Shown: one piece after another, positions 906 through 20,981 of the stretch | Layout of the letters: every line of letters begins with the position of its first letter | Position numbering within the stretch: position 1 is the stretch's first letter | Assembly (NCBI GenBank): GCA_964553355.1 | Contig: CAZKKJ010000002.1 | Span: forward strand, 1-29,865 | Source: an uncultured Candidatus Saccharibacteria bacterium | Lineage (GTDB): Bacteria > Patescibacteriota > Saccharimonadia > Saccharimonadales > AWTP1-31 | Direction of reading: 5' to 3' | DNA: 29,865 nt | The notes under the pieces: generated by a model | Databases searched by the model: none | Told to the model about the DNA's origin: nothing | What the model saw: only the letters and a program-made list of their open reading frames with translations | Program-made: the position numbers and the translations under genes

Positions 906-1397
906 TTAGCTTAAAAGTTTGTTTACTCGTCGTGTGCTGGTAAACAACATCGCTAAGACCGCTACAGTGATGCCTGCAATGGTACTGTCAAGTTCGAGTA
1001 AGACTACCAAAGGAATAACTAGCCCAGCCGTAGTAATTGGCAAGCCAATAAGAAAGCCTTTGGTCTGATTCCGGTTGATGTTGTGGCGTGCGAGCCGTAG
1101 AGCACCGGTAACAGGTAGCAAAACGGCTAGTAGCGATAACCAAGTGGTGTCGTAAAAGGTCGTGACTAGCACCATAGGTGCCACGCCAAAGGTTACCAGG
1201 TCTGCCAGGCTGTCCATTTCGGCCCCAAAGTCAGACTCGACTCCCATACGGCGTGCAACCCAGCCATCGATGGCGTCAAAGAACATGCCCGCAATAATTA
1301 GCACGGCTGCCTGCCAAAAGTTGCCGTGTATTGCCGCATAAATGGCCAATAACCCCGAAACTAAATTAAGACAGGTAATATAGTCGGGCAGTTTCAT
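906..1397 (-). CDS. pssA: CDP-diacylglycerol--serine O-phosphatidyltransferase (CDP-alcohol phosphotransferase class I)
   Basis: DAIDGWVARRMG..SDFGAEMDSLADLVTFGVAP motif, LRLARHN, multiple TM segments, adjacent to psd. Start moved to ATG 1397 (MKLPDYIT), 7 nt after the psd stop. Confidence 0.85.
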   Translation of the reverse strand: MKLPDYITCLNLVSGLLAIYAAIHGNFWQAAVLIIAGMFFDAIDGWVARRMGVESDFGAEMDSLADLVTFGVAPMVLVTTFYDTTWLSLLAVLLPVTGALRLARHNINRNQTKGFLIGLPITTAGLVIPLVVLLELDSTIAGITVAVLAMLFTSTRRVNKLLS

Positions 1398-1404
1398 GAT
1401 TTTT

Positions 1405-2034
1405 CTAATTGATTTCTGCAAGAATAGTCTCCCCGGCAACGGTGCGGTCGCCCTTTTTAACTTTTAGCGTAACAGATTTTGGAATAATCATAGTCACTTG
1501 GGACCCAAGATTGATCAGCCCAACTTCTTGCCCAGCAGTCACCGCGTCGCCCGGTGAAACGTTGGTAATCACGCGTCGAGCCAAAAAACCAGCGATCTGA
1601 ATCATCTTTACTGTCACTTTTCCCTTAATAATGGTTTCTGCCTTCTCGTTTACTAGACCGGCCTCAAAGGTGTTGACGGCCAAGAACTTTCCAGCGCTGT
1701 GCACCACGCTTTCTACGGTTCCACTTATGGGCGCACGATTAATATGTACGTCTAGCGGCGACATAAAGACCGAAATAATATAACCCTCTTTTGCAACATC
1801 GCGGGTTAAGGTGTTAACAATACCTAAAAGACGCTTGGTGCCTTTGAATAACTGTACTTGGTCGCCCTTGAACTCTAACAATTCAACAATTTTACCATCC
1901 GCTGGCGCGATGATAAGATTATCACCGGTAGGTGTTGTGCGGGCTGGGTTACGCAAAAAATAGACTTTCCAAAATACTAATAAGAGCACAAAAAGTACAG
2001 CTATGATAACTAGTGCGTAAGTGATAATTATCAC
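1405..2034 (-). CDS. psd: Phosphatidylserine decarboxylase proenzyme (short type)
   Basis: N-terminal TM, IAPADG, FMSPLDVHINRAP, QIAGFLARR and LGS self-cleavage motif (LINLGSQV). GTG start. Confidence 0.9.
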   Translation of the reverse strand: MIIITYALVIIAVLFVLLLVFWKVYFLRNPARTTPTGDNLIIAPADGKIVELLEFKGDQVQLFKGTKRLLGIVNTLTRDVAKEGYIISVFMSPLDVHINRAPISGTVESVVHSAGKFLAVNTFEAGLVNEKAETIIKGKVTVKMIQIAGFLARRVITNVSPGDAVTAGQEVGLINLGSQVTMIIPKSVTLKVKKGDRTVAGETILAEIN

Positions 2035-2041
2035 AGTAAAC

Positions 2042-2449
2042 CTATTGAACGACTATTCGTGTAGCCACGGTATCTTTGCCGACTACTTTGGTAAATAAGA
2101 TTGACTTGGATCCTACGGTTACATCGCTTGCTTTTACATTTCCCTTGGCATTAGTGATGCGTGTTTCTTTGGTAATTATGGCAGACTTAGATACGTCGCC
2201 CTGGAGTTTAACTACCACTTCAGAATCGCTAATCTTGCTAATCTCCCCAGTTGCAGGTAGGCCCTTAACAAGTGAGTTTCCTGAATCTTTTTTGTTTGTA
2301 CTCGTGTCATCATCCTTACCGTTGTTGTAGCCAAATTGATACACACCCAGCGCGATGAGAGTTACCACAAGTAGGACTACGAGAACAATTATCCTGGGCA
2401 AACGAAGTTTGCGCACTGGATTAGGTGATTGCTTAATTTCTTCCTGCAT
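2042..2449 (-). CDS. Single-pass membrane protein with small beta-rich (DUF5666-like) outer domain
   Basis: Basic N-terminus, strong TM (IIVLVVLLVVTLIALGVY), then GEISKIS...T.I...V.VG...ATRIVV, which resembles DUF5666 repeats. Confidence 0.6.
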   Translation of the reverse strand: MQEEIKQSPNPVRKLRLPRIIVLVVLLVVTLIALGVYQFGYNNGKDDDTSTNKKDSGNSLVKGLPATGEISKISDSEVVVKLQGDVSKSAIITKETRITNAKGNVKASDVTVGSKSILFTKVVGKDTVATRIVVQ

Positions 2450-2530: not shown

Positions 2531-2563
2531 TAAACACATAGTAAGCATAACTGTGGTAGAAGT

Positions 2564-5500
2564 GTGAAGTCAAAAAGAGTGGTAAATTTATCGATGCCGG
2601 ACCGTATAGCCAGGCAGCCTAAGCATATTAGGAGTATGTTGGCTGTATTTGGTGTTGTGACCGTCGGTGTTTTTGTGTACTACTTGGCTTCGCTGTTACC
2701 GATGTTTAGTTCTGCCGCAAGTCCTACGCTAACAACCGGCGGTGCATCAAATATCGGACGCACCACTGTCAAGCTTACAGGGGACACGACTTCCAATGGC
2801 GGGAGCGAAGTCACCGAGTGGGGTTTCCAGTATGGTACTACCACTGGATATGGCACAACTGCTTCAGAAACACAAAAGCCCTACGCATTTGCTAGCAAGA
2901 TCGGTGGACTAGGCACGAACGATGGTGAGTTTACAAATCCATATGGCGTTGCTTTCGACAGTACCGGCAATATGTATGTGGTGGACGCAACAAACAACCG
3001 TATACAGAAGTTCGATAGTAATGGGAACTTTATTACTAAGTGGGGTTCTAGTGGTAGTGGTGACGGCCAATTCAGTGGCGCTTACCATATAGCCCTCGAT
3101 AGCTCAGATAACGTATTCGTGGTTGATATGTACAACGCACGTGTTCAGAAATTTAACAGCAGTGGAACATTCATTAGCAAGTTTGGGACACAAGGTTCTG
3201 GAGACGGCCAGTTCAGTAGCCCAAGCGGAATTGTCATAGATAGTTCAAATAATATCTACGTCGCCGACAGATCAAACCAGCGTATCCAAAAATTCAACAG
3301 TAGCGGTGTATTTATCACCAAGTGGGGGTCATTGGGCGATGCCGATGGACAATTCCGTAATCCAACTTCACTTGCTTTGGACGGAAGCGGCAATATATAC
3401 ATTGGAGCGACCAGGATAATCCATAAGTACACAACTAGTGGAGTATTTGTTACAAAATGGGGAAGTGCCGGTACTGGCAATGGTCAATTCAACGGCGTCC
3501 ACGATTTAAAAGTAGATGGCTCGGGTAATATTGTTGCACTGGACGGATTTAATTACCGAGTACAGATATTCGACAGTAGCGGTACCTACCTAAGTCAGTG
3601 GGGTGAACGCGGCGACAATGACGGCCAGTTCCAAATTCCTTATGGTCTGGCGATTCGCAATAACGACATATACATAGCCGACAACTCTGACCGTGTACAA
3701 AAGTTTAGCCCGTACTCGCAGGCTGGCACCTATACGATAAGCATTACGGGGTTAACCTGTGGCACTACCTATCACTACCGAGCATTCGCAACGAATATAG
3801 ACGGTACCAGTTATGGTGACGATGCAACATTCGACACATTTGGCTGTGCGCCAGTTCTGGACATTTCTACCAGTTATTCTCAAGACATCACACAGTACGA
3901 TGCACGAGTCCGGGCCACTATAAACGAGGGTAGTAGCATAGCTACATCCAAGGGCTTTCAGTATGGCACTACCACCAGCTATGGCCAAACTAAATCAGTA
4001 CCCGTGCAAGAAGAGTATAAATACAAATCCTCGATTGGCAGTGTCGGCACGGGAGATGGACAGTTCCAGCAAGCCCGCAATTTTGCCTTTGACTCAGCCG
4101 GAAATATGTATGTGGCTGACACCTACAATGACCGTATCCAAGTATTTAACCCAGCCGGTAGTTACGTTAGTCAGTGGGGAGTTTCGGGTTCTGGCCCGGG
4201 TCAATTAACCGAGCCAGCGCACATTGCCATTGGGCCAGATAACACTGTGTATATAGCGTATGGATCTGCTTCCGAAAAGGTTCAGCGCTTTACAGTTAAT
4301 GGGACATACCTTGGAGCCTGGGGCACATTTGGTTCGGGTAATGGAGAATTTAGTGACATTGGCTATATAGCCGTAGATTCTACCGGTAACGTATATGTAG
4401 CAGATCTTGGCAACTATCGCATCCAGAAGTTTACAAGTACAGGTTCGTTTATAACCAAATGGGGCAGTTTTGGTTCTGGTGATGGCCAGTTTACGCAAGT
4501 TAAAGGAATTGATTTTGACTCATCAGACAACGTTTATGTTTTGGACTACAATACACCTAGAGTCCAAAAATTTAACAGCAGTGGAACATTCATTAGTAAG
4601 TTTGGTAGCCTGGGATCAGGGGATGGTCAGTTCTCTTTTCCTGCGGACATTACAATTGACGATCAGAACAATATATTTGTATTAGACGCTGGCAATCGAC
4701 GTGTCGTTAAGTTTGATCCTAGCGGCAATTATATAACTAAATTTTCTCGAGATGGTGCGAGCACAGGTGAGCTTGAGCTGTCTACGGCCATTGGAGTAAA
4801 AGCTGACGGTGTGGTATATGTTGCAGACACAGCAAAAAGTAAAATCATATCCTTTGAGACAGTTAATCAAGATACCCCATTCTTCTTGCCAATAAGTGGG
4901 CTTACTTGCAATACGACTTATCACTATCGAGCTTTCTTGGCCAATGGCACCGACACAGATTACGGTATTGATAATACGTTTACCACTGATGCTTGTCCTA
5001 CGGCTCCGGGTGTTACCACAAACATTAGTACTGGCTTGACCCAGACTACCGCTACATTAAACGGACGAATCGACAGTCTAAAAAGTACCGTGTCCAGTCG
5101 TGGCTTTAGGTTTGGTACAACCGATAGTTATGGTCAAACATTCCCAGAGGCAGTTACGCATAATATTAACTACACCAGCGTATTGCAGACTAGCGACATG
5201 CAGTCTCCATCTGACAACTTCCCACGAGACATTGCCAGAGACTTAGCTGGAAATATGTATGTTATAGAGTGGGGAGGGGGTAACCCTCAAGTTGAAAAAT
5301 TCGACAGTAACGGTAACTTTATTACAAAGTGGGGGAGTTACGGTACAGGTGATGGTCAATTTAGTCTCCCCGATAGTATAGAAGTAGACGCAGCTAATCG
5401 GGTGTATGTAGCTGACGCGGTAAATGGGAATATTCAAAAGTTTGACAGTAACGGCAATTTCATATCCAAGTGGGGCACTATAGGCTCTGGCATGGGAGAG

Positions 5501-20234: not shown

Positions 20235-20981
20235 ATGCAGGTGGTGGTCAACAACTTATTAACCAACTATGTCCAAAAGGGCAGTGGCAAAAACGTTCTG
20301 TTGCTGCACGGCTGGGGTGATAGCTCAAAGGGAATGCACCTGTTTATAGAGGCCTTAGCAAAGAAGTATAAAGTCACGTCCATAGATTTGCCTGGCTTTG
20401 GTGGCACGCAGGCACCTTCAGAAGCGTGGAGTGTTAGTGACTATGCTGGCTTTGTGCAGCAGTTTGCCTATAAAATCGGCCTAGAGCCGGCACTGGTAAT
20501 CGGTCACTCAAATGGTGGTGCTATTGCTATAAGAGCACTGAGTGGTGGCTTGGTGGCAGATAAGCTAGTATTAGTTGCCTCGGCTGGTATTCGGGGTGAG
20601 TACAAGGGGCGCATGCAAATTCTTCGCTACATAACTAAGGCAGGCAAGGCAATAGCCATGTTGCTACCAAAACGAATCCAAAAGAAGTTACGCCGTAAAC
20701 TTTATACTACAGTTGGCTCAGATATGTTGGTTGCCGAGCATTTACAAGAAACTTTTAAAAAAGTGGTGGCTGATGATGTTCGCCAAGCCGCTAGCACCCT
20801 GACTGTTCCGACCCTTCTAATTTACGGAGATAACGACGTCTCTACGCCGCTGGCATTTGGCCGTAAACTAGAGCAAGCCATCCCGAATTCACGGCTAGAA
20901 GTTATTCCTGGTGGTGAACATGGTTTACCAACCGAAAATACCCAGCAGGTAATTAATTTGATAAAGGGGTTTGACAGGTGA
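20235..20981 (+). CDS. Alpha/beta hydrolase
   Basis: LLHGWG, DLPGFG, GHSNGG nucleophile elbow, catalytic D (GDND) and H (GGEH). Confidence 0.9.
   Translation: MQVVVNNLLTNYVQKGSGKNVLLLHGWGDSSKGMHLFIEALAKKYKVTSIDLPGFGGTQAPSEAWSVSDYAGFVQQFAYKIGLEPALVIGHSNGGAIAIRALSGGLVADKLVLVASAGIRGEYKGRMQILRYITKAGKAIAMLLPKRIQKKLRRKLYTTVGSDMLVAEHLQETFKKVVADDVRQAASTLTVPTLLIYGDNDVSTPLAFGRKLEQAIPNSRLEVIPGGEHGLPTENTQQVINLIKGFDR

Follow-up and report, generated by a model that had tools for sequence, protein, structure and literature searches.

A psd-pssA gene pair in one family of Saccharimonadia: predicted lipid head-group synthesis and affinity to DPANN archaea

It is established that bacteria of the Candidate Phyla Radiation (CPR) lack lipid synthesis and recycle lipids (PMC8080830). 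What, then, are the role and the origin of two adjacent genes for phospholipid head-group synthesis in such a genome? The question is raised by psd and pssA, which lie side by side on the minus strand of a 29,865-nt stretch of DNA (contig CAZKKJ010000002.1 of GenBank assembly GCA_964553355.1; the whole stretch is called the window below) from an uncultured Candidatus Saccharibacteria bacterium. An earlier, sequence-only reading had described an intact pair for converting cytidine diphosphate (CDP)-diacylglycerol and serine into phosphatidylserine (PS) and then phosphatidylethanolamine (PE), and had suggested that the organism, taken to belong to the CPR, remodels head groups on scavenged lipids with genes that may have been horizontally acquired. 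Based on sequence and structure comparisons, we consider it probable that the operon serves to build PE head groups on scavenged glycerolipid and that it shares ancestry with gene clusters of DPANN archaea through an old interdomain transfer.

Two predicted enzymes of phosphatidylethanolamine synthesis

Both enzymes belong to known families and are ordinary representatives of them; in public records the two proteins are already labelled PS decarboxylase and PS synthase. The pair is intact, as had been claimed: both open reading frames (ORFs) are whole and keep all their catalytic motifs (Table 1), and the end coordinate given in the sequence-only reading, 2034, is the start of psd. The mechanical ORF of pssA spans 906-1439 from an upstream TTG, and public gene calls and homologues begin at the ATG at 1397. 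With this start, the TAG stop of psd is followed by 7 nt and the ATG of pssA, and the two genes therefore do not overlap. The order psd then pssA recurs in 20 of the 21 psd-bearing genomes of the source's family and in most DPANN and bacterial loci; together with the 7-nt spacers, this marks psd-pssA as a predicted co-transcribed operon.

The psd product matches PF02666 with 153 bits (cut-off 22), covering profile positions 6-197 of 198. An alignment of 13 Psd homologues shows D46 (PADGK), H97 (DVH) and G177-S178 (LGSQ) to be invariant, and in a HMMER alignment D46 and H97 fall on D90 and H144 of E. coli Psd, two residues that make up its self-processing triad with S254. In the AlphaFold model (predicted local distance difference test, pLDDT, 85.5), the protein consists of a single N-terminal membrane helix and a beta-rich domain. 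It aligns with the beta chains of E. coli PSD (Z 9.0-9.7 over 143-148 residues) up to model residue 176, directly before the predicted cleavage site, and with the related EIIA-Glc fold (Z 12). E. coli Psd (PDB 7CNW, 6L06) thus shares the PF02666 domain, the N-terminal membrane helix, the G-S cleavage site and the fold, whereas identity is only about 21%, the protein here is about 110 residues shorter, and its cleavage motif is LGSQ instead of LGST. It appears akin to the short-form (PRK05305 / TIGR00164-type) phosphatidylserine or archaetidylserine decarboxylases. Its score against TIGR00164 AS_decarb is 173, below the cut-off of 230. Self-cleavage at G177/S178 would convert S178 into the pyruvoyl group and leave a 32-residue alpha chain, and the enzyme, anchored by its one N-terminal helix, would decarboxylate PS to PE.

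The pssA product, the only CDP-alcohol transferase in the source genome, matches PF01066 with 81 bits and the NCBIfam model TIGR00473 pssA with 130 bits (cut-off 107). Sister specificities score below their cut-offs (pgsA, 34.6 vs 109; phosphatidylinositol-phosphate (PIP) synthase, 37 vs 170). Residues D41, D44, G45, A48, G58, D62 and D66 are invariant among 31 homologues. The closest solved relative found by sequence search is the PS synthase of Methanocaldococcus jannaschii (MjPSS; 7pow/7b1k, E 3e-23), and the AlphaFold model of PssA (pLDDT 88.8, predicted template modelling score 0.86) superimposes on 7b1k with Z 20.1 and a root-mean-square deviation of 1.6 A over 153 residues, compared with Z 13-15 for PIP synthases and 11.4 for PgsA. 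The TIGR00473 score and the 7b1k match thus place the transferase with the PssA type that the sequence-only reading had assumed, rather than with PgsA or other CDP-alcohol transferases. PgsA or another specificity was rejected on the profile scores together with the structure comparison.

At 38% identity, MjPSS and PssA share the fold and the motif of CDP-alcohol phosphatidyltransferases, and both have the metal-binding aspartates and the RLAR arginines. They differ in length (about 200 aa vs 163 aa): the model spans only MjPSS residues 8-160, so that PssA is without the C-terminal ~40 residues, probably helices 7-8. In MjPSS the C-terminal helices shield the lipid tails, and the enzyme is strictly serine-specific and accepts CDP-diacylglycerol and CDP-archaeol alike (PMC8633023). 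Family assignment and the adjacent psd point to serine as the acceptor alcohol of PssA as well, and this minimal six-helix integral-membrane enzyme would condense a CDP-activated lipid with L-serine to give PS. Models for archaetidylserine synthase and decarboxylase remained below cut-off (NF038087, 119 vs 240; TIGR04217, 104 vs 200).

Distribution and ancestry of the gene pair

The source assembly holds 732,911 bp in 98 contigs, with 47.9% guanine plus cytosine (GC), 82.65% completeness and 2.61% contamination. In two mates from its GTDB family (G156, G158), the psd and pssA ORFs have identical counterparts on public contigs that bear the titles Candidatus Saccharimonas sp. and Candidatus Saccharibacteria bacterium, and the assignment to the CPR made from the sequence alone therefore holds. 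Within this family of Saccharimonadia, Psd is present in 21 of 26 genomes and 13 of 15 genera, including a 3-contig genome that is 99% complete. Outside the family it was found in 2/125 other Saccharimonadia and 2/400 other Patescibacteria; these four are a long-type Psd, distant forms or fragments, and none is of the source type. In the DPANN phylum sampled, 16 of 151 genomes have a Psd.

A search of 5.8 billion proteins reveals a drop in Psd matches from 60-82% identity (unnamed, Saccharibacteria and Patescibacteria) to archaeal names at 49-57%. Among GTDB species genomes, Psd identity is 60-66% for Saccharibacteria, 45-52% for Woesearchaeota, Nanoarchaeia and Nanoarchaeota, and 35-42% for other bacteria; the middle range also takes in MAGs (metagenome-assembled genomes) labelled 'uncultured Methanosarcinales', which cluster with DPANN. 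Quick trees of Psd and of PssA agree in setting Saccharibacteria plus DPANN apart from other bacteria, which include Acidobacteriota, Nitrospirota and Deferrimicrobiota (SH-like approximate likelihood ratio test, SH-aLRT, 98 and 95). In a careful tree of concatenated Psd and PssA (61 rows, 446 columns, LG+C20+F+G4), the same division is supported at 100/100 and has a combined branch length of 1.37. Support is 100/98 for the Saccharibacteria-type clade and 97/86 for the DPANN clade. Horizontal acquisition, which the sequence-only reading had offered as a possibility, is thereby supported and made specific: the pair is restricted to one family and groups with DPANN archaea in both the Psd and the PssA trees. 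We favour an old transfer of psd-pssA between a DPANN lineage and the ancestor of the family as the likely history. Given the distributions, a transfer from archaeon to bacterium is more parsimonious and the more likely direction.

Could the pair instead have descended vertically, from an early archaeal-like bacterial form that almost every other CPR lineage has lost? In the careful tree the Saccharibacteria form a sister group of the DPANN clade and are not nested inside it, rooting on the DPANN branch would divide the tree simply by domain, and the GC content of psd (44.6%) and pssA (49.2%) is without anomaly in a window of 46.8%, so that composition carries no sign of recent transfer. However, vertical descent needs loss in almost every other lineage, given the counts above and the fact that none of the four outlying Psd is of this type, and Psd identity to DPANN exceeds that to other bacteria. 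Nor is the Psd tree a simple domain split, because Methanocaldococcus falls on the bacterial side and a Chitinophagales clade is nested among DPANN. We regard vertical descent as unlikely.

The DPANN affinity also raises another explanation, in which the contig or the operon comes from a DPANN archaeon co-assembled with the bacterium. In its favour, no sequences outside the clade are closer than those of DPANN archaea, and the assembly is fragmented and slightly contaminated, as described above. Against this, the same 29.9-kb contig bears bacterial genes for LeuS and an NAD-dependent DNA ligase, 21/26 family genomes, the 3-contig one among them, have the operon, the clade is monophyletic and distinct from DPANN, and the GC content is typical of the window. 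A binning artefact is effectively refuted.

The Woesearchaeota and Nanoarchaeia clusters, which hold the closest relatives of both proteins in the same psd-then-pssA order, often with carS (CDP-archaeol synthase) adjacent, differ from the operon described here in three respects. Many DPANN pssA ORFs are about 350 aa long with two PF01066 stretches (tandem-domain; L027, L028, L029, L030, L033, L034, L035, L038, L041, L045), and Saccharibacteria pssA has no tandem domain. Several of the listed loci, L029 and L033 not among them, have a gene of about 560 nt between psd and pssA, which is missing from the Saccharibacteria operon. Finally, carS stands beside psd and pssA in many DPANN clusters and on another contig in the source genome. 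The contiguous arrangement psd-pssA-carS occurs in many DPANN loci and in one Patescibacteria MAG (L023:2944-4628, Patescibacteria group bacterium SMAG_U15659). This MAG takes a basal position in the Saccharibacteria-type clade, and its arrangement could represent an intermediate state of the transferred cluster.

Two further observations concern the sequences placed among the archaea. Four Chitinophagales MAGs (L051, L065, L079, L088) form a well-supported Bacteroidota Psd clade among Woesearchaeota, without an adjacent pssA, and may represent a second, independent bacterial acquisition of a DPANN-type psd. Nine MAGs titled 'uncultured Methanosarcinales archaeon (binchicken)' (L026, L029, L035, L039, L040, L045, L048, L070, L089) group with Woesearchaeota/Nanoarchaeia in their Psd, PssA and CarS, and the submitter's taxon label looks unreliable.

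Lipid genes and a possible salvage route

Profile searches of the source genome, at its 82.65% completeness, gave no match for PlsC, PlsY, FabF/B (ketoacyl synthase) or DegV. As this genome is incomplete, searches for the key lipid genes were repeated on five family genomes that are 98-99% complete, where FabF/B, PlsY and geranylgeranylglyceryl phosphate synthase (GGGPS) were each found in 0/5, and PlsC and UbiA each in 2/5; UbiA is thus not conserved. A PF01148 search revealed no canonical CdsA across the 26 family genomes: 25 have a match, and every one is short and CarS-like. The match in the source genome is a single 173-aa CarS-like protein (contig G000:C10), which scores 95.9 bits against PF01864 (cut-off 22). 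For the genes searched, the genome thus has no full lipid pathway, in line with the sequence-only reading.

CarS-like genes are more widely distributed than the operon, being present in 60/301 Patescibacteria of many families. In a class sample, 24/151 Saccharimonadia genomes have a PF01148 match, about 11 of them canonical CdsA and about 13 CarS-like, two further genomes match the CarS-like profile only, and about 125 of the 151 species genomes match neither. Most of Saccharimonadia therefore appears unable to make a CDP-activated lipid. In a weakly resolved tree, the family's carS falls (SH 87) among the carS genes of its own bacterial order and not with those of DPANN, which suggests that carS was inherited vertically within the order and was not co-transferred with the operon. 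Since the operon is limited to the family and carS-like genes are wider in the CPR, we view the operon as a trait of the family that came on top of a carS already older in the CPR.

How would PssA be supplied with its substrate? Because no fatty-acid synthase, PlsY/PlsC or canonical CdsA was found, the CDP-lipid would most likely derive from scavenged glycerolipid, and we infer that the operon remodels head groups on such lipid. The source genome encodes a lipid kinase of the DgkB/YegS family (DAGK_cat; contig G000:C5, L139:1754-2635); kinases of the DgkA type were found in 0/26 family genomes. The DgkB/YegS-like kinase would convert diacylglycerol to phosphatidate, the CarS-like cytidylyltransferase would activate phosphatidate to CDP-diacylglycerol, and PssA and Psd would lead from there through PS to PE. 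Given the genes present, a salvage chain that begins with diacylglycerol or phosphatidate and ends in PE is plausible. We also considered phospholipase D as a possible phosphatidate source for the family. Most of the PLDc_2 matches are proteins of about 165 aa with a single HKD motif that could equally be nucleases, forms of about 495 aa with two HKD motifs occur in only 3-4 family genomes, and the source genome has one 117-aa ORF match.

The window itself also encodes an alpha/beta hydrolase (20235-20981, plus strand; Hydrolase_4 / Abhydrolase_1, with a weak Phospholipase/Carboxylesterase match), which may be a lipase or lysophospholipase and could then be relevant to the scavenging of lipids.

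A comparable scheme has been proposed for the soil Saccharibacterium 'T. rhizospherense', in which head groups are interconverted on imported phosphatidate (Starr et al. 2018, PMC6031116). That organism resembles ours in lacking fatty-acid synthesis and in having CDP-diacylglycerol-based head-group enzymes that would act on imported phosphatidate. It differs in that CdsA, PgsA, cardiolipin synthase and PI (phosphatidylinositol) synthase were described and PssA/Psd, hence a PE route, went unreported (PMC6031116), whereas the activating enzyme here is CarS-like and the predicted products are PS and PE.

The surroundings of carS differ within the family. Most members have a second transferase by carS, whose best-scoring models are those of archaetidylinositol-phosphate or PIP synthase, accompanied by a PHP-domain phosphatase and a PIG-L deacetylase. 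In this conserved cluster of the relatives (for example G140, L019:1492-3427), the transferase, the PHP-domain phosphatase and the CarS-like gene stand alongside a histidine phosphatase gene and the PIG-L gene (N-acetylglucosaminyl-phosphatidylinositol (GlcNAc-PI) deacetylase family). The source genome (G000:C10, L001:583-2603) keeps carS and PIG-L, with a DUF1361 gene at the place of the transferase. The gene content of the relatives' cluster suggests synthesis of an inositol or glucosaminyl-inositol lipid.

An archaeal-type substrate must also be weighed. The CarS-like enzyme could activate scavenged archaetidic acid, an isoprenoid ether lipid, and PssA and Psd could then produce archaetidylserine and archaetidylethanolamine, in a family that lives on or beside archaea. 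Consistent with this, the cytidylyltransferase is CarS-like and not CdsA, both operon genes group with DPANN archaea, the relatives' transferase next to carS is best matched as archaetidylinositol-phosphate synthase with a PIG-L deacetylase near it, and MjPSS-type enzymes take either lipid class. Yet CarS-like genes occur across so many patescibacterial families that they are no special mark of an archaeal partner, GGGPS was missing from all five near-complete relatives, and the archaeal NCBIfam models all stay below cut-off while the bacterial-named pssA model is exceeded. Cultured Saccharibacteria, moreover, live on Actinobacteria. We consider archaeal-type substrates distinctly unlikely. 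The stronger proposal, that the family holds a complete archaeal-style head-group toolkit with which it rebuilds isoprenoid ether lipids taken from archaeal partners, seems to us very improbable. Such a toolkit would comprise the CarS-like activator, the DPANN-type PssA and Psd and, in relatives, the archaetidylinositol-phosphate-synthase-like enzyme with PIG-L; if the proposal were true, this bacterium would have a membrane of archaeal type and an archaeon as its host.

Salvage of glycerolipid to PE by an operon of shared ancestry with DPANN thus remains the reading we prefer, and several results weigh against it. At the completeness of the source genome, its gene absences are provisional, and the lipid-gene absence covers FabF/B, PlsY and PlsC, with PlsX, acyl carrier protein and other Fab genes not searched. 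The assigned enzymes fall short of the stricter models: Psd scores just below its best NCBIfam equivalog (NF003685, 179.3, cut-off 183), the CarS-like protein scores 128 against the CDP-archaeol synthase equivalog NF003114 (cut-off 148), and the lipid kinase is divergent, with all NCBIfam models below cut-off, and is present in only 12/26 family genomes. As to ancestry, the trees sample the 80 loci with the highest similarity to the query and contain very few non-DPANN archaea. In the careful tree, Saccharibacteria and DPANN show reciprocal monophyly, forming three clans with the other bacteria in an unrooted tree, a topology compatible with transfer in either direction and, formally, with vertical descent.

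Surroundings of the operon and significance

Upstream of psd lies orf135, a small gene that may be the first of the psd-pssA transcript (Table 1). Its product has no Pfam or NCBIfam match, and a homologue ahead of psd was seen only in L036 among the loci compared. Promoter and terminator scans returned site counts in the region equal to chance expectation.

Table 1. Features of the psd-pssA locus, in coordinates of the window.
Feature	Coordinates	Strand	Basis
pssA, minimal six-helix CDP-alcohol phosphatidyltransferase, phosphatidylserine-synthase type	906..1397	-	163 aa; TIGR00473; MjPSS match
PssA catalytic motif D41xxDGxxAR(x8)GxxxDxxxD66	1200..1277	-	regular-expression match, complete
psd, short-form membrane-anchored pyruvoyl-type phosphatidylserine decarboxylase proenzyme	1405..2034	-	209 aa; GTG start; PF02666
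Psd predicted self-cleavage site L176-G177-S178 (LGSQ)	1501..1509	-	sole GS[QST] site in the protein
Psd predicted N-terminal transmembrane helix, residues 2-26	1957..2031	-	one long hydrophobic helix in the model; segment kept in homologues
orf135, small N-terminally anchored protein	2042..2449	-	135 aa; 7 nt upstream of psd
Promoter-like site upstream of orf135	2544..2573	-	9/12 consensus match; weak

The neighbourhood raises another possible use of the pair, in which PS and PE are not bulk membrane lipids but a donor or anchor, for attaching lipid to surface proteins, on the pattern of the archaeosortase-linked PssA/PssD pair, or for decorating envelope polymers with ethanolamine phosphate. 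A giant surface protein gene adjoins the operon, and the enzymes have weak matches to the 'protein sorting system' models of that pair (anchor_synt_D, NF038088, 104.8 bits; anchor_synt_A, NF038086, 52.9 bits). These scores are far under the cut-offs of 240 and 200. The genes flanking the operon vary across the family in our locus comparison, and no link to an archaeosortase or exosortase was seen, though none was sought. We hold a donor or anchor role to be very unlikely and retain PE synthesis on scavenged glycerolipid as the preferred reading.

A full-text literature search returned no paper on psd/pssA in Saccharibacteria, on a link between CPR and DPANN for these genes, or on the family restriction or DPANN affinity of the operon; the genes are not treated in Coleman 2019 or Probst 2020. 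What is new here is the distribution of the operon, restricted to one family, and its ancestry, with its affinity to DPANN.

The prevailing view is that membrane lipids of CPR bacteria come from other cells, but the steps that these bacteria still perform themselves are poorly mapped. The core of the operon is common to DPANN, the archaeal counterpart of the CPR in lifestyle, and would provide a membrane-lipid example of gene sharing between the two radiations; this sharing raises the question of which lipid backbones PssA and Psd accept. A route by which imported diacylglycerol or phosphatidate could be turned into PE is conserved in one family of Saccharimonadia, which offers a concrete and testable example of bacteria that would be autonomous for their head groups but not for their acyl chains.

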